Source: Octopus vulgaris
Lineage: Eukaryota
Assembly: GCA_951406725.2 (NCBI GenBank)
Contig: OX597831.1
Coordinates: 620,001 to 684,000, forward strand
DNA: 64,000 nt
Direction: 5' to 3'
This document shows positions 16,701-60,963 of this stretch, one piece after another. The notes under the pieces were generated by a model. It was not told the origin of the DNA. It made no database searches and saw nothing but the letters and a program-made list of their open reading frames with translations. The translations under genes were made by a program, and so were the position numbers. Numbering within the stretch: the stretch's first letter is position 1; every line of letters begins with the position of its first letter.

Positions 16701-17220
16701 TAAAGTTTATTATATAAAAATAACGGTATTCACCATTTTCAAAGTAATAAGTTTCATGTTTTTATTTTTATGCAAATAAATTTTCTTTTTAAAACATTTT
16801 TTTTTGTTTCATTTGGTGGCGATGATGATGATGACAACGATGACCACCACTGCACCACCACCACCTTTTAGTGTACTGTACCAAACTATGTACCCACCTA
16901 TTTACCCATATATCTACCAACTTAGCTAGCCACCTACCTACCTATATATCTATCCACTAGCTAGCTAGCTGCATACCTACTTACCTATCTATCCATCTAT
17001 CTATGTACCTATATACCTGCCTGTATATCTACCTACCTCCTGCCCACCTACCAGCTTACATATCTACTTGCCTACCTACTTTCATTCCAATATACCTACT
17101 CACTATCTAGCTACCCATCCACATACCTACCTGTTTCCCTCCTTCCCTCCCTAAATACCTCCCTATTTCCCTCCTTCCCTCCCTCCCTCCCTCCCTCCTT
17201 CCCTACCTACCTAATACCTA

Positions 17221-17453
17221 TTTCTTTACTACCCACGAGGGGCTAAACACAGAGGGGACAGACAAGGACAGGCATAGGTATTATGTCGATTACATCGACC
17301 CCAGTGCGTAACTGGTACTTAATTTATCGACCCCAAAAGGATGAAAGGCAAAGTCGACCTCGGCAGAATTTGAACTCAGAACGTAACGGCAGATGAAATA
17401 CGGCTACGCATTTTGCCCGGTGTGCTAATGTTTCTGCCAGCTCGCTGCCTTAG
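17221..17453 (-). mobile_element. Nin/Deu-domain tRNA SINE inserted in a (CCTA)n tract
   Basis: Full head to tail; flanking direct repeat tacctacctaataccta at 17204-17220 and 17454-17470. Confidence 0.82.
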
Positions 17454-17666: not shown

Positions 17667-17756
17667 AGCCACAACCATTCCTACTGTATCCGACCAGCCC
17701 TCCCTAAGTACACAGTGGAACCCCAGGATGTGACCATTCAACTGGACAGTTCATTT
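17667..17756 (+). CDS. GALC: GALC exon, SHNHSYCIRPALPKYTVEPQDVTIQLDSSF
   Basis: ttacag/gtgag; 90 nt, phase 0-0; conserved CIRP loop. Confidence 0.94.
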
Positions 17757-18179
17757 GTGAGTTGACTAGTTTTATTTGTGTATATACTTCATAAATAACA
17801 CACAGCCAAACACAAGAATGAGTCTTCTACTATAGGCTGGCTGAAATCTTGTGAGTGGATTTGACAAATGGAACTGAAAGAAGCCCATCGTATATATAGA
17901 ATATAAATTAGAGAAAAAACCACTATTATGCAATTCAAACAATAATAGACATAAACCAAATCATAAATAAAAAAATAATATTAGGGAGTTATACTCCCTA
18001 ATATTATTACTATTTCCGCCGAGGCCGACTTTGCCTTTCATCCTTTCGGGGTCGATAAATTAAGTACCAGTTATGCACTGGGGTCGATGTAGTCGACTTA
18101 ATCCCTTTGTCTGTCCTTGTTTGTCCCCTCTGTGTTTAGCCCCTTGTGGGTAGTAAAGAAATATATATATATATATCTA

Positions 18180-18840: not shown

Positions 18841-19873
18841 AATACAAATAAGAAAATGGAGGAACAGATTTCTTTCAATCATCAAATTACATAATACCAA
18901 TTCATATTATTTATTAACTACTTAAATAGGAACATCCAAATCCAACAGAATAAAACAGAATAAAACAATATACATCAATAAGTAAGATAATACCATAAAA
19001 ATAATACATATAAAATGGATCTTACAGCTGTTTCAGCCTGTAGATAAAGGTATCTCATTGTGCCTATATTAGTCATATGTATTGAGGTAATATGCACTTA
19101 AAATGAGTTACTTATATATATATCTCAAGGCCTTAAAACAAGTGTTACTGTCATGCAATTAGTGTCCATCATTCCCAATACTCTGTTCGTTGGGAAATAT
19201 TAACTTACAATGGGTCAGTCAGCTTAGATGTAGACATACATGTAGGAGAGATTTCCTCACAGTTTCTGCCTACCAAATTCAGCTTATAATGTATTGGGCA
19301 ACTCAAGGCTATGTAGTGGGACCAAAACTGAAAAAATGGCTAAAACAAGTAAGTGACTAACCACTCCACAGACAGGTGTATCCTTAATGCAATTCTCTAG
19401 GAGATTCACTGTAAACACAGTGATGTCACCTGGCACACTGCCTCATGAAGATCACTGCTAGCTCTCAGTGTGCATGCAGCTGTGTGCAGCCATCTGTTGG
19501 CATGCCACAGAACCAGTCTGGGAACCTTTTGATACCACCTTGTGTGTGTGTGTATGTATATATATATATATATATATAAATTCAGCAAAAATTTAGATTT
19601 GAATGAATATGGTACTTAATTTAGATGCACCAGAATTTTGTATGGTGTTATCCATAAAAATTTACGGGGTGATTATAATCAAAATAAGCAACAAGAATGA
19701 CTCCGGTAAGATAGATACAGCAGTTAGATACAGCCATAGCTTGGTCAGTCAGTGGTTGAACTTCACTACCTCATATGTTCTTAAAATTTAAATCTACATC
19801 TTTGTCTGTATATCTACCTTCTCTATAATGTTGCTACTTGATTTGAAAGCTTTTATATTAATGGAAAACCTAT

Positions 19874-19968
19874 GTAATTGGCTGATGAGCACTCAGCATC
19901 TTAAATCTGTTGTAATACTTACAACTTTTAATAAAATGATGTAGTGTGAAACAATTGTACCAAATTAC
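19874..19968 (+). ncRNA. Type I hammerhead ribozyme motif (PLE-type, palindromic stem III)
   Basis: gtaattgg-CTGATGA(19882-88)-gcact...agtgt-GAAA(19948-51)-CAATTG-TA(19958-59)-ccaaattac; stems I, II and III all pair. Confidence 0.8.
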
Positions 19969-20100
19969 CGGAGTCATTCTTGTTGCTTATTTTGATTATA
20001 TATATATATATATGTATACACACACATACATATATGATGACGATGATAATATGTACATATATGCATATATACATACATACATACATGCATACATATATAT

Positions 20101-20337
20101 ATTTTACATTATTTATTAATTATACAAAGGGGAACATCAAAATCAAACAAAACATTATATAAATCAATATGTAATATAATAATAAAAATAATACAAATAA
20201 ACTGCTCCTTACAGCTGAAACAGTTGTAAGGAGCAGTTTATTTGTATTATTTTTATTATTATATTACATATTGATTTATATAATGTCTTGTTTGATTTTG
20301 ACGTTCCCATTTGTATAATCAATAAATAATGTAAAAT
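20101..20337. repeat. ~117-bp-arm palindrome centred on a hammerhead half-site
   Basis: ...actgctccttacagctg-aaa-cagttgtaaggagcagt...; arms near-perfect centrally; flanked by TA-rich repeats. Confidence 0.88.
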
Positions 20338-20399
20338 TGTAAAGTCTGTAAGTTGATGAACGAGATGAATTTGTTTCTTCATTTTCTTATTTATATATG

Positions 20400-20624: not shown

Positions 20625-20714
20625 AGCTTTGTCAAACAATTCTACATCTGGTTCAGTGAATTAAGCTTCACCCAGAAAGCATCTGTGCTGTTCCAACAGC
20701 AGAAACCAATTCCG
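20625..20714 (+). CDS. GALC: GALC exon, [30 protein letters not shown]
   Basis: tttacag/gtaag; 90 nt, phase 0-0; W-S-L and F-Q pattern of the beta-sandwich domain; fills the expected gap. Confidence 0.88.
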
Positions 20715-37011: not shown

Positions 37012-37146
37012 TACACACACACACACACACATTGTAAACACAAAAATATCGTATACAGATATAAGATTACTTCGGAGGATAGAGAATATTTCTATATAGA
37101 AACTAGCTCATGTTACATTAAGCAGAGAATTGCCAATCATTTAAGT

Positions 37147-37259
37147 TCGTTTAGAAACAGAGACAAAATGAATACTACCAGCCACAGTAAGTTATTTGGG
37201 CACTTAAAGATCAGTTTACTAAGGCTGGTAGTATTCATTTTGTCCCTATTTCTAAACGA
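37147..37259. repeat. 37-bp-arm inverted repeat
   Basis: 37147-37183 versus 37223-37259, 2 mismatches. Confidence 0.85.
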
Positions 37260-38389
37260 TCTTATGTTCATATAAGTATTTTCGATTGCTTGGGAAATTA
37301 TTAGTTAAGCAAAACCTTATATAATAGGCGATACTAGCCGTAACTCTTGTGTGGAGGAAATGTACAAAAGTTTCTTTTTTAAATACACTATTTTAAATAC
37401 TAGACAGGAACAGGCTACGAGATGTCCACACTGGATTAAATGTACGTTTAAACGATTTAAAGAAACATAAATTACCATCTATGGTAATTATACTAGTTAT
37501 ACTAATACATCTGTTTGTTGTCTACACCACCTGTCTTCGTCTTTTGTTTTTTTTTTGTGAATTCTCCCTATATACAAGCACACACACACACGCACATACA
37601 CGCACACGCGCGCGTATGTATGTATGTATGTATGTATGTATGTATGTATGTATGTATGTATGTATGTATGTATGTATGCATGCACGCACGCACATACGTA
37701 CATATGTATGTATGCAATCATGCACGCACGCACGCACGTACGTACGTACGTAGTATGTATGTATGTATGTATGTATGTATGTACGTACGTATGTATGTAT
37801 GTATGTATGTATGTATGTATGTATGTATGTATGTATGTATATGAGCGCATGCACGTGTACGTGTATCTTTAAGATGGACATTTCAGAATTATTGAGACAG
37901 AGGTGGATGTGATATGATTCTGTCCCTAAATATAAATCAATTTGTCTACTTTGTACGTCTGGTTGTTGTTTTTTTATAGATATTTTTTTTAGCTATTTCA
38001 ATGCATTTATTTTCGCTACCATTTATAGAAGTTACCTTCGTTATGTACACAAACTCAAATGCAGAACATTTGCTGTTAAGCTATCTGCACGTGGAGTTGC
38101 TGAAATTGCATTCTGGCATCCATTAGAGACACTTATAGGACTGACATATTAAACGAAAATAACAAAACAAAACTATACAAGTAGATAGCGCAACACGTTC
38201 TAAACTCCTGTTGGCGATATTAAAGCTTAGAAAAACACAAGGTCAACACTTGCAATATAATCAATAGCCGAGTAAAAACACGAGCATATCAATGATAAAA
38301 AAAAAAGAGAGAACGTCGCATCTTTTCTGTTTAGCTTTCATTTTCAGTTCCTTTAATTTTGTTCCAGTTTATTTCAAATTTGGTATATT

Positions 38390-40801: not shown

Positions 40802-43041
40802 GTGAGGGGCTGGAATTAACAAAATTAATGTTGGAACTCCCAGAAAATGAACTTTTATTTAGCAGACTGGTATTATGAGAAGATATAATTTGTGAAAGAT
40901 TCTTTGTGTTGGAGAAGGCAACTCTAACTATATGAGAATTAATAATTAAATAATATCTAGAATTTTTGGGAAAGATCTTACCAACCACTTCACGGAACTG
41001 CAAAGGAAGATTAGATTTAATTTGTTTTCCGTACGGAATAACAAACCAGACAGTTTTCCTAGTAACAGTCAAATTGTGAGTGGTACTATCTTTAATGAAC
41101 GGTGAAATACCCCCAGAGTGAAAAAATGGGCTTAAATAACGCTCGCCTCCCTTACCTCGTAAAGGAATTTTATTATGTTTTGTGTTGTTTACAATATTAG
41201 AATTAAAATCACTCTTCTTATTACAACTAGATTTCTAGTCTTGAACAGTAGATGAAGGATGAGATTGAGCAGAATCAATGTATGTAACTTTTTGTTTATA
41301 TCCTGCTTTAACTAAGGCAGAGTTATAAAATTCTGCCTTGTCGTTAAAAATGTCAACATTGGCGAATAGTTTAGACAATCTAACTGAAATGTTTTTAACT
41401 AAATTCTTAGTAATTGCCCTAGCGTGATTACTGGAAGGACTAATATACTTGAGATTGGTGGAAGGTTTGTGGTATGGGAAGTATGAGTTATTTTGCAAAT
41501 TAAGAGTAATATCTAAGAAGTTAGCTTTAGTTAATTCATCGTCAAAAACGATGTGAAAGCCCGTTCTATGAAAGACCTAACTAATCTATTCTTAATCTTC
41601 TGTATTTTTTGATTTGAAATGTTTTGGAAGTAAATCAAACAATCATCACGATATAGACCTCCACAGATGTCTGGGAACTGGTCGGCCATTTCATAAAGTA
41701 TATATGTGCCGACTAAATCAGCAATTTGAGCTGAATCTGAACTTCCCATTAGGACATCGAACGCATTGGGAGTATCCCTCCGGACCCACAACTTGTTATC
41801 GAACTTAATGATTGATTTTCTAGCAGCCAGTACCACATTAATTTTCTCTCTAGAGAGACCTGCTTTATTGTGTGCATGCCAGACTGCCTTATTGAGTGTA
41901 ATAGGGTTGATTGATGAATAAAAGCTAGATATATCAAACAGAATAAATTTAGTGTTAACCTTATTAGTAATAGAAGTAAACCAATCTACAACTTGAAAAG
42001 AATTAGACCATAAGCTAAGTTTTTAATTTATTGATTAATATAGGGATATACTTATCTAAGATGTATTTACTAAGTCTACTGATGTCTGAGCTGGAAGGAC
42101 AGATAAGACGTGAGGATGGGTTATTATAAAAGTTTTATTTGTGGTCTTTTAAAATAAATCAAGGCTGCCTGGGATTCAACGGTTCTGTCTTCATCTGTAA
42201 TCCATACGATTCCATAATTCCTTTAGCTTCTAGGTTAGCCTGCCTGAGAGTATTCCTACTGGTGGTCTTGTAGTTTTTATGGATCACCTTTTCCAGCAGT
42301 TCCAAATAGTGGCTCTTAGTAAGCTTATAGAGGTTTCCGGTTTTATCAGATTGAACAAGGATGCAATCTATGTTATTGATTTCCTTAGAGACGTTGTGAA
42401 GATATCTAAGATGTTTGTTCCTGAGGGGTGAACGGTGAAATTTTATATTCTTCACGATGGACCATAGATCATCCTCGAATTGCTTCAATCTAGGGTTAGG
42501 TGGAGGGGTACCCTTCGGGTTAGGTGGAGGGCTGCCCTTCGATTTAAATAATTTTGTATACTCAGAAGAAATATTATTACTGGTCTGTTGTAAGTCCTTA
42601 TTGTCGAAGAAGGAGGTGAGCCATCTGATGCGGTTGATAAATGCATTCGTCTTATTGATGAGTTCCTTAAGGAAAGCATTCTTTGGGGGAATAGGAATAT
42701 CCTTAAGCGAAACGTTGATATTAAATCACTCCATTTGCGGTAACGGTTATATTAGTAGGTTATAAGATAATCTGTTGAAAAATATGTCAATGGGTTATTG
42801 AATTATCCTTTGTTTACCGTTAACATGGAAAATTCAATAAACAGTTACCGGGGTTGCAAAATTCACGCAAGTAACAAGGATGTAGCGCGACCTATTTAAA
42901 GGTAGAAACTCCGCGTTAATGCGCAGTAATTTGTGTAGTATAAGTAAATAAATGAGTTGAACGCAGATGAATTTTGCGACCCTGGTAACTGTTTATTGAA
43001 GTTTCCGTGTTAACGGTAAACAAAAGATAATTCATTCATCC

Positions 43042-49212: not shown

Positions 49213-51905
49213 TGTAGCGAGGCACAAGAAGCCAGTGCCATTTTGTACGAGATCTCGCTGATAGCCATTCCTTCTTGCTTATGCTGAGAAACACCGCGAA
49301 GCTGGTGGCTCACAGCGGACTCTTATTCCGCTCTATCTTCACCTGTTATCTCCAGAGGTAATGAACCTCACATGAACGGAGCCACAACGAACCACGCGCT
49401 GCCATAAAGATGGTCATTGGGAGCGAACCACATGAACAAGAACTAAAAATAAACGACTGTTGAATTGCACTCCGCTTGTAAACTTCTTCGTGTTCCAGAT
49501 CCTCAAGACCACAGAAATAATTATAATGGGAGAAGGAGATACTCCACAGGTATCACAAGCCTTCAATTCCATTATAAAATGGTGACCCCGACGGAAAAAT
49601 GACTTCAGCAGCTGCAAGCTTTCTCATTGTAGATGCCTCCCCCGAACTACAGAATGGCAGTCTGGCCCGACGTCAGAATATCTTTCCACGTTCAAGTGAA
49701 CCTTTAGAATTTGTGTTTTTCGTCTCGAACTTGTACCTCGCAGAGTATGCTTTCTTCCTACAAGGAACTACACGGTTGTTATGTGTAGTTTGGGTTCTAG
49801 TGGGATAGACAACCAAATGAAAACCATTGTTATTGTTTACGTGTTTATTTCTTTACATGTTACACGGACGACGACATTCAGCGTAGTAATGCATTATATA
49901 CTTTACACACAGTTTGTACTGTTCACTAACAAATAGTGCCAAGAGTGGGGATGTAGTTTGGCACACGCAAACACATACATATGAATGTGTAACAACGGTA
50001 TTCTGTCAAGTAATCTCCTTTTGTAGTAATTTTCCCCACAATGTCGACCGACAACGTTTGATGTCAGTACATACACCAAATGCAGCTACAGGACACTTCA
50101 AGCAAGCCGACCATCAACTTCTAACCGTCGTTCCTGTCTACCGCAATGTTTGGATTGCCTCACGTGTTGAAAAAAAAAAAAAGAAAATTACCAGTTTGCT
50201 CGCCATTTTTTGACGACATTTTTGAACGGACTGCAACACAGGTTTAGTGATTAAAAAAGAAATTTTTGTTCATTGCTACACACAGCACACAAAAAATTCA
50301 AAAATTTTGCTAAGAATATTTTTTTTCGCACACACGTTACTATTCCAGCAACACTTTTGTCGGTTCTTTAGTCCTTTCTTCTCTTCTCTATACAAAATGA
50401 GTCTTTCCAACTTACCCGCGTACCCTGGTGATGCCACGCTTTAGTTCGCTCAATTGGATGCGTATTTTTCCGCCCATGCAGTACTTCACCAACAGCAGCT
50501 AAATCTTTTGTACTGTGGGATGCCTGCATCCCTTGCATGCTGAGTGAAAGGCCTCAACACTGACCCATATCCGGACGCGATTTACGTGTCCGTCAAATCC
50601 GAGGTTCTCCATTGGAACAGACAATCCGCGGAAAGTAAATTCTAGACACTGATGCAAGATGAATCCTTGGGAGATAGGACGCCATCTCAGTTTTTTTCGT
50701 CGTTTGCGTGAACTCAGCGACACTCCACTTGAGGACAATCCTCTCCCTTGGAAATTGTTTTTCTCTTGGCTACCGCCGAATGTCCAATCCATACTGGCCA
50801 CTACGGTCGACTCCAATTCGCTTGATCAGATAGCCACCATGGCGGACAAGATCATAGATTTCACTGTGCAGCCCGCACCTCACCATACCTGTTCGGATCC
50901 TGTAGTGGCTTTCTCTACTACCACAAAGCCTTTTCCCTGGTCACATGACGACATTTTGGAGAGAGATGACGCATTAGCACGTCGCATGGACACATTGTGG
51001 TGAGAACACGCCAGCTCTCGACGTCCTCGCAGCAGAAACCGTTCTAAGTCACGGTCATCTAGTTCTACTCCAACGGTTTCCAATATCTGCTGGTACCAGT
51101 CCACATTCAAGGACAAAGCCCGTCGATGCATCCAAGCTGTCGGGAAACTAGCTACGGAAGATTTGGGCACGTCAAATTCTTCCCGCAATTTTTCATCTCA
51201 TCGTGCATTCTTTGTTAAGGAGCGTGTGTCTAACGAATCGTTCATGGTTGACACCGGATTCAGCTGTTCTATTTGGCCTTTGTGTCTTACTTCAGATAAG
51301 CCGAAGTAATCTGCCATTAACCTGCACGCGGTGAATCTATCCCCGATAAAAACTTACGTTCAGGTCTCATTACACCTAGATCTCAACCTTCGAAGGGATT
51401 TTAGGTGGGTTTTTGTTATAGCAGATCTACCATACCTCATTCTAGGCACGGACTTCTTAAGCCATTTTCACTTATTAGTAGATGTCATGCAAGAGAGACT
51501 CGTGGACGATTCTACGTCTTTGTGTACACCTACTCAGGTTACTACTAATGCTGTTCCCAGCCCGTCATTTTTTGTCGCCGCTGCTGGTGATCAGTTCCAC
51601 TCCTTTTTGGATTTTTTCCCAGAGCTGGTTGATCCGACTTTCAAATCAGTCAAATTCCCACACTCGGCTCGCCATTATATCACTACTTCTGGATCACCCG
51701 TCTTTTCGCGTCCACCGCGACTCGCTCTTGATCGGTTCAAAAGGCTCGATCTGTTTGAGCATATGCTTCAACTCAACCATATTCGCCCTTCCACCAGCCC
51801 TTTGGGCATCTCCTCTACATTTGGCATGGAAAGGGGATTCAGACTTTCGCCCGGTGGGGGATTACAGACGTTTGAATGCGGTCACTGTCTCCGATCGCTA
51901 TCCTA
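49213..51905 (+). mobile_element. Decayed Ty3/Gypsy element of CsRn1/Kabuki type: 5' LTR, PBS, gag, protease and RT start
   Basis: TG start at 49213; PBS TGGTGACCCCGACG at 49580-93; gag LGDRTPSQF-RRLREL, LPPNVQSILA, MADKI, CWY---F---ARRC; protease MVDTG; RT WASPLHL and RPVGDYRRLNAVT--DRYP. Confidence 0.88.
49580..49593 (+). promoter_or_regulatory. Primer-binding site complementary to the tRNA-Trp 3' end
   Basis: TGGTGACCCCGACG directly after the LTR; tRNA-Trp priming is characteristic of this Gypsy lineage. Confidence 0.8.
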
Positions 51906-52320
51906 TAACTTCCTGCAACTCATCTAAAATCTTCTTATCTTCCTCACTTAAATCACCCAAGTCGTTGGTTCCAGTTGTCCCTTCTTTATTAGTAGCGCTA
52001 TAATTATTTTTTCCTTTAGGTTCTTCTTTGGTTTGAGCTGTGTCTCTTATATTGTTGTTTGTGTTTCCCACTGCCTGGTCTTTCTTTTCCAGTTCTCTTG
52101 CGATCTCTTCTCCCTCCATTTTTGTCATTCATTTTCTTCTTCTAATAGCATTAGCTTGATCAACTAATCTCTACTCAGTCACTTTTAAACATACCTTTCT
52201 CTACCCAAAGTGTTAACATCTGTTTTCTATAGCCCCTTCTTTTAGGTCCATTTTCTAAGAAGCACTGTATCACTATCCTGTTTTCTTTGCTGGTCCACTT
52301 CTTCCTATAGTGCAAACATA
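51900..52320 (-). mobile_element. N-terminal fragment of an R4/Dong-like LINE ORF
   Basis: KKWTSKENRIVIQCF--GPKRRGYRKQMLTLW--KGMF and ANAIRR...MEGEEI, a Myb-like N-terminal pattern of R4-clade elements. Confidence 0.65.
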
Positions 52321-57081: not shown

Positions 57082-58271
<1,190 letters not shown>

Positions 58272-59793
58272 TATGGGTTTTTCTTCTTCTTTCAAATTTG
58301 CTTCCATTTCTTGCCGAGTGTCTTCCCGACTCCTAGGGCAAAGAAACTCATAGTATACATTGGTAGGCCATTAAACTAAACTCACTAGTTTGTTCATTTT
58401 TTTTTTATAGAAATAAAGTTAAATTAAAATACATGGGTGGTAATAGTTCTCACATCGACAATGCTCTTCTCAATACGTGTGATGTACCAGTTAAGACAAT
58501 CTTGTGCACTTCTAGCAGGGATGGTAAGCCAGGGATCATTCTCATATAATTTTCGGTTCCCTTTTTGTTCATTCCTAGTGCTCCTACGATCACTGGTATT
58601 GTAACCGCCTTGAGGTGCCACATTTTCTCAATTTCAATGAGCAGGTCTTTATATTTTCTGAGCTTGTCAAATTCTATCGCCGAGATATTATGATCACAGG
58701 GGATGCTCATGTCGATCAATAAGCAAACTTTATTGTTTTGGTCTTTCACAACAATATCCAGTTTATTGGCTTTGATGGTTCGGTCTGTATGTACTGGAAA
58801 GTCCCACAGAATCGTTACATTTTCTCCTTCAGTTACAGCTTCAGGGTGGTGATTATACCACTTGTCGACAGTTTTGATATTGTAATGCCGACTTATTAGC
58901 CAGTGTAGATATTGGCTAACTCTGTCATGTCTTAATTTATACTCCACTGGTGCTAAGACTTTACATCCAGAGATTAGGTGGTCCACTGTTTCAATCATGT
59001 CGTTGCAGAATCGGCATTTTGGGTCTGCTCCATTTTTCATCACATTGGCCTGGTAGTTCCGGGTTAATAGGCTTTGATCTTGAGCAGCCAGGATGAAACC
59101 TTCGCTCTCTGCTTTTAGCCCTGAGCTCCGTAGCCACTGGTGGGTTTGCTTCTGGTCAACATCAGCTTGTTTGCTACGGGCCACATATTTGCCGTGCAGA
59201 GGTTTCTCCTCCCACCTTTCAGCCAATTGCTCGTGCGCTTTTTTCGTTGCCATCATTTTCACCTTATTTGCAACAATAGTTGCCGTACTTCCCTCGGGTT
59301 GTTCAGTTTGGGTATCCTGCACGAGATCAATAGCAAGTTTTTTGCTTTCCTTTATGATAGAATGAAGCTTCTTTCGTCTCTCGTGATTTTCCACAAGCTT
59401 TAGCATCCAGTCATTCGTTATTTCAAGATATTTGGCCAGTCCAATTGTGGTTGTTTTGTAAGCTAGTTCAAATTGGATCAGGCCTCGACCTCCTTGGGCT
59501 CTGGGAGGTAAAGGCGATCTACGTATGCCTTTGGGTGGTGCATCCTATTACAACTCAGCACCTTGCGTATTTTCCTATCTATTTTTTTTACTTCACTCAT
59601 ATTCCAGTTCAACACATTGTGGCTATAAGTAACAACTGGAACTGCTAAGGAATTTATAGCTAACACCTTGTTACGTGCTTTTAGTTCAGATTTCAGGACT
59701 GCTCGAACTCTCCAATAAAATTCCTTCCTGATCTTCTCTTTCATGCTTGCATGCTGAATACCAGAGCCTTAATTTATCCCTAAATATTTGTAG

Positions 59794-59795
<2 letters not shown>
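58272..59795 (-). mobile_element. 5'-truncated R4/Dong-like LINE with restriction-like endonuclease, nested in the PLE
   Basis: YKYLG, NKVLAINSLAVPVVTYS, ORF 58450..59406 with LHGKY, AAQDQSL-TR, CRFC---ETVDHLISGC, RHD, (P>L)DIVV...IDMSIP, K--KY; (TAA)n on both sides. Confidence 0.92.
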
Positions 59796-59846
<51 letters not shown>

Positions 59847-60963
59847 GGAATTAACAAAATTAATGTTGGAACTCCCAGAAAATGAACTTTTATTTAGCAG
59901 ACTAGTATTATGAGAAGATATAATTTGTGAAAGATTCTTTGTGTTGGAGAAGGCAACTCTAACTATATGAGAATTAATAATTGAATAATATCTTAAATTT
60001 TTTGGAAAGATCTTACCAACCACTTCACGGAATTGCAAAGGAAGATTAGATTTAATTTTCTTTCCGTACGGAATAACAAACCAGACAGCTTTCTTAGTAA
60101 CAGTCAAATTGTAAGTGATACTATCATTAAAGAACGGTGAAATACCCCCAGAGGGAAAAAATGGGCTTAAATAACGCTCGCCTCCCTTACCCCGTAAAGG
60201 AATTTTATGTTTTGTGTTGTTTACAATATTAGAATTAAAATCACTCTTCTTATTACAACTAGATTTCTAGTCTTGAACAGTAGATAAAGGATGAGATTGA
60301 GCAGAATCAATGTATGTAACTTTTTCTTTATACCCTGCTTTAACTAAGGCAGAGTTATAAAATTCTGCCTTGTCGTTAAAAATGTCAACATTGGCGGATA
60401 GTTTAGACAATCTAACTGAAATGTTTTTAACTAAATTCATAGTAATTGCCCTAGCGTGATTACTGGAAAGACTAATATACTTGAAATTGGTGGAAGGCTC
60501 GTGGTATGGGAAGTATGAGTTATTTTGCAAATTAAGAGTAATATCTAAGAAGTTAGCTTTAGTTAATTCATCGTCAAAAACGATGTGAAAACCCGTTCTA
60601 TGAAAAAAAACCTAACTAATCTATTCTTAATCTTCTGTATTTTTTGATTTGAAATGTTTTGGAAGTAAATCAAACAATCATCATGATATAGACCTCCACA
60701 GATGTCTGGGAACTGGTTGGCCATTTCATAAAGTATATATATGCCGACTAAATCAGCAATTTGAGCTGAATCTGAACTTCCCATTAGGACATCGAACGCA
60801 TTGGGAGTATCCTTCCGGACCCACAACTTGTTATCGAACTTAATGATTGATTTTCTAGCAGCCAGTACCACATTGATTTCTTCTCACAATAAAGAGAGAC
60901 CTGCTGTATTGTGTAAAAAGAATTTGAGTAGCATCTGCGTTCAACTCCATTTATTTACTTATA
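59847..60963 (-). mobile_element. Penelope-like element copy 2, RT part, 5'-truncated and capped by an inverted pLTR piece
   Basis: Highly similar to 40814-41870 (ORFs 59769, 60267, 60563); 60914-60963 is the reverse complement of about 57242-57290. Confidence 0.9.

Follow-up and report, generated by a model that had tools for sequence, protein, structure and literature searches.

PLEs of the Hydra clade, as described in PMC8557442 with Hydra-1_Obim of Octopus bimaculoides among them, carry the motifs DKT, CxCX5C and GLYRDD, with CxxC and CxH around the E and N of a GIY-YIG endonuclease (EN) that is without CCHH; they insert into (TA)n targets, have a type I hammerhead near the 3' end, and leave insertions with an inverted, 5'-truncated arm and a tail at one end, a layout already known for PLEs from PMC8557442 and PMC3846280. 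Metazoan PLE hammerheads that act as dimers combine a type I core with a palindromic stem III (PMC4209133, PMC6765202), and many of their single or opposite-strand copies come from truncated PLEs (PMC4209133). In Poseidon PAc of Anolis, two fixed RT start sites bound the tail; in vitro, the Penelope protein cuts and extends both target strands from these sites and uses uncut RNA, and insertion needs no ribozyme cleavage (PMC11167929). Non-LTR retrozymes, finally, are ORF-less units of low GC content with a type I hammerhead (PMC7229834; bioRxiv 10.64898/2026.07.22.740005).

The locus considered here, a 423-bp insertion in an intron of the predicted GALC gene of Octopus vulgaris, lies in a window of 64,000 nucleotides (contig OX597831.1, positions 620,001 to 684,000), the whole stretch of DNA that was analysed. 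Together with its parent element it shares each of the features just listed for the Hydra clade, and the type I core and palindromic stem III of the dimer-acting hammerheads, as well as their occurrence in many single or opposite-strand copies; its two fixed ends bound a tail as in PAc; and it resembles the retrozymes in being an ORF-less, low-GC stub. The family is distinct by eye from Hydra-1_Obim, whose hammerhead has a short loop 2, and, set against the Hydra PLEs described in PMC8557442, its unit is longer (3.5 kb with an Asn-rich insert versus under 3 kb), its tail is 96 nt rather than 30–40, and it reads RWI instead of RWK. Its domain II measures 59 nt, whereas loop 2 is 3–10 nt in 25 of the 25 Hydra families listed in that source, which lists a longer loop 2 only for two Selaginella PLE-X1 elements, flagged as deviating; compared with the hammerheads of PMC4209133, domain II is far longer, hairpin-capped, and equipped with a conserved A(A/U)UAAA. 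PAc (PMC11167929) belongs to another clade and its ORF starts inside the ribozyme, whereas the octopus ORF starts about 180 nt after it; the octopus ends read TTATA like the target, and the evidence on the octopus element is genomic. Unlike the retrozymes of PMC7229834, the stub has no tandem monomers and is a fragment of a coding element. We consider it very probable that the locus is a 5'-truncated, two-armed PLE insertion, likely primed from both nicked (TA)n strands, with a hammerhead that is predicted to cut only as a dimer and that the GALC intron probably carries as a passenger. Its features are as follows.

17667..17756, plus strand: GALC exon 5' of the intron (Pfam PF17387, E 1.7e-8; PDB galactocerebrosidase, E 0.014)
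19556..19578, no strand: (TA)n target microsatellite, left flank (read from the sequence)
19578..19673, minus strand: inverted arm's 96-nt tail, with E2 as its fixed end (follows the position-20000 sequence in other copies)
19674..19709, minus strand: last 36 nt of the pLTR, inverted arm (reverse complement of 19965-20000; breakpoint mapping)
19710..19715, no strand: 6-nt junction filler between the head-to-head arms (gap of 6; compared with family sequence)
19716..20000, plus strand: direct arm, the 5'-truncated 3' UTR/pLTR of a PLE assigned by motifs to the Hydra clade (E1, at +41 relative to the cut, is its fixed end)
19874..19968, plus strand: type I hammerhead (stems, core, palindrome, predicted cut after 19959; covariation)
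19889..19947, plus strand: enlarged domain II, 59 nt (folding, pair counts)
19930..19935, plus strand: AATAAA of domain II, 24 nt ahead of the cut, a candidate for the parent's poly(A) signal (putative function)
19976..19994, plus strand: GU/U-rich tract, 17–35 nt after the cut, conserved across families
19998..20015, no strand: (TA)n target microsatellite, right flank (read from the sequence)
20625..20714, plus strand: GALC exon 3' of the intron (PF17387 positions 64-90, E 0.0045, below the cut-off)

The two exons flanking the intron have AG/GT borders, as predicted from sequence, and match consecutive parts of the Pfam domain Glyco_hydro_59M (positions 32-61, then 64-90); every GALC exon match in the window lies on the plus strand. 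The ribozyme therefore stands in sense orientation in the predicted GALC intron, as the initial annotation had proposed. The insertion is young, being 98.2% identical to its nearest copy (72 matches compared), and the contigs matched to 19150-20380 are mostly other family copies. Two further repeats were observed in this neighbourhood. At 20101-20337, 100 bp from the hammerhead unit, lies a near-perfect palindrome (117-nt arms, 96%, 3-nt spacer), MITE-like or a fold-back repeat, to which a piece at 18888-18950 is related; and a 155-nt inverted repeat (92%; 17214-17368 and 18014-18168) stands on both sides of the exon at 17667-17756, where it could affect exon skipping or editing.

At the left of the unit, a 36-bp inverted copy of the downstream sequence had been pointed out, and it is exact (36/36; over 60 base shuffles, the longest inverted match averaged 9.6 and never exceeded 14), but the truly inverted part is 132 bp and reaches into 19578-19673: the reverse complement of 19578-19673 is found directly 3' of the position-20000 sequence in other copies, which makes the left 132 bp a second, inverted arm. 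Its tail corresponds to the start of the 5' leader of the parent, about 50 nt before the ATG, and the arm is 5'-truncated at +6 from the predicted cut. The filler between the arms resembles a short duplication of the neighbouring TAGATACAGC, from which it probably arose. The direct arm is 93–98% identical to the other scored copies (40 scored of the 2,818 candidate places at which the stub sequence occurs in the genome) and is continuous with the EN-coding 3' end in loci L032 and L055; the GALC-intron stub itself is without an ORF.

A genome search for further copies, suggested in the initial annotation, found them in large numbers: a relaxed hammerhead descriptor allowing a 40-70-nt domain II gave 10,877 matches genome-wide against 16 in the control, and the 22-nt core pattern gave 354 exact matches. 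Walking upstream in the longer copies, one meets an endonuclease frame and then an RT. The suggested search for an autonomous PLE led to a full-length coding parent, L055 on C14, with its ORF broken: between flanking (TA)n runs and over 3,465 bp from E1 to E1, it consists of a partial pLTR, the tail, the ATG, an RT, an Asn-rich linker, the EN, a 3' UTR, the pLTR, and the tail, the frameshifted ORF running through three stop-free frames that place an RT together with a C-terminal GIY-YIG between the pLTRs. None of the six long loci examined has an intact ORF. Searches of Pfam and PDB with the parent RT and EN returned no significant match, and a GIY-YIG Pfam match (E 0.013) was obtained for a sister family only; the top ESM Atlas matches of the parent were RT/HTH_animal clusters at 0.93-0.97. 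In L055, L057, and further long copies, an Asn-rich insert of (AAT)n type separates the RT from the EN, and it is like the N-rich inserts of rotifer Penelope (PMC3846280).

The assignment of the parent rests on its motifs. L055 and L057 read DKT (PADKTG), not DKG; the linker is CxCX5C; and in four aligned copies the GIY-YIG core is without CCHH or CxxC, with CxxC-E-N-CxH around E and N. The RWK position reads RWI in L055, the sole copy holding that region. Judged by these motifs, the parent is a coding PLE of the Hydra clade. The Neptune clade, which has DKG, CX2-5CxxC, and CCHH, was ruled out by DKT, CxCX5C, and the missing CCHH.

The hammerhead itself is complete, every part named in the initial annotation of the TA-flanked unit lying where it had been placed. 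The type I core, CUGANGA / GAAA / UH with three helices, is formed by CTGATGA at 19882-88, GAAA at 19948-51, and the UH site TA at 19958-59; stem I pairs 19874-81 with 19960-68 with one bulged A, stem II (GCACT/AGTGT) closes the 59-nt domain, and stem III is the CAATTG palindrome within ACAATTGT at 19951-58. Among 85 family copies the core is intact in 72; the palindrome reads CAATTG in 47, CGATCG in 19, and CGATTG in 9; pair 10.2/11.2 is C-G (41), U-A (33), or U-G (8); and the closing pair of stem II, a G-U in the GALC-intron copy, is G-C in 69 and G-U in 11. A long-arm hammerhead descriptor run on the 64-kb window found two motifs only, at 19882(+) and 57368(-), whose longest common stretch is 11–12 nt, in agreement with the earlier view that this hammerhead and the 57.3-kb ribozyme have no kinship in primary sequence.

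General structure searches gave no support: an Rfam scan of the 64-kb window produced 0 matches at the gathering score, MFE folding of 19866-19975 (z -0.60) alone lends none, and RNAalifold, applied to a MAFFT alignment of 21 motifs, reported no consensus structure. Because RNAalifold found no consensus pairs, the fold was supported by counting the pairs of the named structure in these motifs, namely the GALC-intron copy and 20 motifs chosen for diversity from 100 listed. Across the 21, 83.5% of cells are paired and 65 are changed on both sides, values that 0 of 500 shuffles reach, in a shuffle control that ignores the relatedness of the motifs and that two other measures did not beat; slid controls pair at 29–53%. 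Stem I is 95% paired, with both-side changes in 3 of its 4 pairs, and the stem III palindrome is 100% paired. These counts indicate that the fold is real at the level of the family.

How the fold would act is a separate matter. As a perfect palindrome without a loop, stem III has a predicted pairing of 0.02-0.2 in the monomer, and the dimer folds at -39.8 kcal/mol, compared with -33.6 for a pair of separate monomers and a cofold minimum of -41.0; in these models the loopless palindrome points to cleavage in the dimer only. Stems I and II form in the isolated 19870-19972 RNA (p about 0.6-0.9), and the G-U closing pair lowers predicted stem II from 0.93 to 0.33. We had entertained G10.1-U11.1 as proof of inactivation and dropped it, this pair being present in a published consensus and in 11/85 copies: among the published Hydra consensus sequences there are some with G-U (Penelope-13_HM) or U-U at 10.1/11.1, and U-U is also known from a weakly active axolotl ribozyme. 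Abundant sister families in the octopus genome carry U-U where the G10.1-C11.1 pair would stand, and have reached high copy number all the same.

To establish how such stubs form, insertion ends were mapped in 146 unique segments from 120 loci, after removal of the segmental duplicates L004, L005, L007, and L111, and 118 segments were kept that lie off the locus edge, are at least 84% identical, and reach the ribozyme end. Nearly all of these (115/118) end at one of two fixed points, E1 at +41 (53 segments) or E2 at about +137 (62 segments) from the cut, and 36 of 38 head-to-head pairs consist of one E1 arm and one E2 arm, the one-tailed layout, while 42/118 segments are without a partner within the fetched flanks; these fractions are not unbiased genome estimates, because the loci were chosen by likeness to the GALC-intron copy. 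(TA)-type repeats adjoin 44/48 E1 ends and 49/50 E2 ends, and both fixed ends read TTATA, matching the (TA)n target. Sister families (L147-L176) also end at two fixed points, one at about +40 and one at about +130 to +160 relative to the cut, and the sequence of their tail is conserved.

The inner ends carry information on the template. Breakpoints within 5 nt of the cut number 3/84 against 3.3 expected, and those within 10 nt 4/84 against 6.1 expected; of 30 arms anchored by the tail, 26 extend across the cut site. Since breakpoints are not clustered at the cut and these arms cross it, the integrated templates were mostly uncut. The same distribution led us to reject a model in which the inverted arm stops at the cut through RT run-off on cut RNA. 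In half of the E1+E2 pairs (18/36), the GALC-intron copy included, each arm holds sequence missing from the other, and a single fold-back therefore cannot produce these pairs. They fit best, we infer, with two primings on opposite target strands. In such a mechanism the RT-endonuclease would nick both strands of the (TA)n target; one target 3' end would start a cDNA at E1 and the second would start one at E2, with element RNA as the template of each; and both cDNAs would stop early (at -243 and +6 in the GALC-intron copy) before being joined head to head. For the ribozyme of the parent transcript to act, two copies would have to pair by way of their stem III palindromes, as in tandem units.

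The alternative that survives best concerns the same element and differs in the origin of the inverted arm, which would come from fold-back self-priming or an antisense template and not from two primings on sense RNA. An origin of this kind was proposed for rotifer Penelope (PMC3846280), and some octopus loci with near-symmetric breakpoints fit it (L099, -219/-219; L008, -239/-238; L081, -58/-58); the private sequence in each arm of the GALC-intron copy, one of the 18/36 such pairs, counts against it, and we judge this origin unlikely.

We return to the hammerhead and to what distinguishes it, the enlarged domain II. Beyond stem II, this domain has a second helix (19896-900/19938-42) and an inner hairpin (19909-15/19919-25), and long domains II with an inner hairpin are common to many families in the octopus genome. 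Its AATAAA is mostly unpaired (p 0.46-0.88 in folding), and AATAAA or ATTAAA is kept in 83/85 family copies. Among 22 diverse motifs, of which the 20 outside motifs were picked before the idea of the hexamer arose and which include the 57.3-kb ribozyme, A(A/U)UAAA lies 23–27 nt before the cut in 14, against 0.76 expected from shuffles; genome-wide it does so in 7,813/10,877 motifs. AAUAAA or AUUAAA stands there in the coding family and in relatives with a PLE footprint, whereas the hexamer is missing from 5/5 sampled members of an ORF-less tandem family with a period of about 534 bp (2,179 motifs), and with that family set aside it is found in roughly 90% of the remaining motifs. Because the families share descent and the tandem family counts as a single lineage, this distribution amounts to few independent events. 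In sister families, an EN piece was found within 1.5 kb in 1/30 loci.

A metazoan poly(A) site has A(A/U)UAAA 10–30 nt before the cut and a GU/U-rich tract after it. The sequence pattern of the octopus motifs fits this definition in both hexamer spacing and GU/U-rich tract, the latter being a candidate for either a downstream poly(A) element or a site of RT binding. We tentatively propose that domain II of octopus PLE hammerheads may house the poly(A) signal of the element, the 3'-end machinery and the ribozyme cutting near the same base, and we rate this as possible and short of probable. The hexamer and the tract might instead have a role in folding or in the binding of RT; the parent 3' UTR has another hexamer farther upstream; no A-run was seen among the 14 loose ends listed in four RNA contig sets, and contigs show ends poorly; and of the published Hydra families, 5/25 have a hexamer just before stem I, by eye (PMC8557442).

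Whether the stub acts on its host gene was weighed in two forms. In the first, the hammerhead in the intron would cut GALC pre-mRNA, acting as a dimer in trans or with the help of protein, and would tune GALC output. Sense orientation and an intact core allow this; the isolated RNA folds stems I and II, and its dimer fold comes to within 1.2 kcal/mol of the minimum for the cofold; family sequence in four presumed-RNA contig sets (unstranded) implies that trans partners may exist; and proteins can assist PLE ribozymes (PMC11167929). Set against these points, no second sense hammerhead is found in the 64-kb window or 20 kb upstream, and when the RNA is folded in context, the inverted arm is predicted to pair with 19965-20000 (p 0.9-1.0), which takes in the distal 3' strand of stem I; stem I then falls to about 0.01 and stem III stands at about 0.02, values from equilibrium folding, which is unreliable for AU-rich RNA. 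PLE hammerheads are described as silent in monomeric and weakly active in dimeric form (PMC4209133); the insertion is young and one of about 11,000; and two family contigs of run X11 bridge the cut site, these being other copies and unstranded. The notion that the hammerhead might cut GALC pre-mRNA thus looks very unlikely in these models, where stem III is unpaired, no partner is at hand, and stem I is masked; for a monomer with a G-U closing pair and a partly masked stem I, little or no cleavage of GALC pre-mRNA is predicted.

In the second form, which we hold to be highly improbable, the effect of the stub on GALC would come not from ribozyme cleavage but from an intronic poly(A) site made up of AATAAA 19930-35, CA 19961-62, and the GU-rich 19976-94. 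Spacing that fits the metazoan definition, and the mostly unpaired, widely kept hexamer, speak for such a site, against which stand the inverted arm, which covers the GU-rich tract of this copy (p 0.9-1.0), the seven occurrences of AATAAA on the sense strand of the intron, and the lack of an A-run near 19960 among the loose ends listed in the four contig sets, although contigs show ends poorly.

The initial annotation had also read the unit as a solo-pLTR or retrozyme-like unit of a second PLE family; that the sequence is a PLE pLTR, of a family other than that of the 57.3-kb ribozyme, held up, but the unit as such did not, its inner junction varying by copy and its direct arm being the 3' end of a coding element. 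That the 423 bp are a non-autonomous retrozyme or mini-element spreading through circular RNA is barely credible, for all that the unit is without an ORF, has full-span matches at C10, C29, and C1, and has a related tandem retrozyme-like family in the genome, as those matches differ in inner breakpoint (+22, -38, and +20 versus +6 in the GALC-intron copy) and the unit has no tandem repeat, a single ribozyme, and the sequence of the 3' end of a coding element.

Other repeats of the genome and window deserve a record of their own. The tandem family forms ORF-less arrays on C1 with a period of about 534 bp and one long-arm hammerhead without AATAAA per unit (for example L143-L146 = C1:16524500-16531000, 29386500-29393000, 5009500-5016500, and 13781500-13788500); its motifs, 2,179 genome-wide, often lie in head-to-head arrays. 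It is retrozyme-like with a Penelope insertion footprint, and fits the retrozymes of PMC7229834 better than the stub does. Within the window, a second 5'-truncated PLE occupies 57290-60883 on the minus strand, with RT/EN remnants 34–56% identical to the protein of the stub family; it is split by another coding repeat at 58450-59768 and ends in the 57.3-kb hammerhead, with AATAAA 27 nt before the cut. PLE RT and EN remnants lie head to head at 41259-42332 (minus strand) and 37033-37461 (plus strand), possibly as one inverted insertion, and frames at 50499-52003 look, by eye, like remains of an LTR retrotransposon with gag, protease, and RT.

For GALC, the stub is most likely without effect, one young transposon stub among thousands. 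For the element family, in which the role of PLE hammerheads has been called unclear (PMC8557442), the octopus copies represent mostly uncut integrated templates, and inverted insertions, which almost always have one arm at each of the two fixed ends, provide a genomic match to the two-start-site result obtained in vitro. The poly(A) hexamer in the ribozyme arm alternates between two common forms across families and is missing from the tandem family. What is new is the 59-nt domain II with its conserved A(A/U)UAAA, in which a nested poly(A) signal is plausible; a literature search covering titles and the starts of abstracts, with Repbase and subscription journals outside its scope, turned up no report of a poly(A) signal inside a PLE hammerhead. 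If the proposal is true, a single module would sort the transcript into polyadenylated mRNA, ribozyme-cut RNA, or a read-through template that keeps both RT start sites; the hammerhead region would gain a role in the Penelope cycle that can be tested, and the octopus genome would have about 7,800 candidate poly(A) sites dispersed through it.
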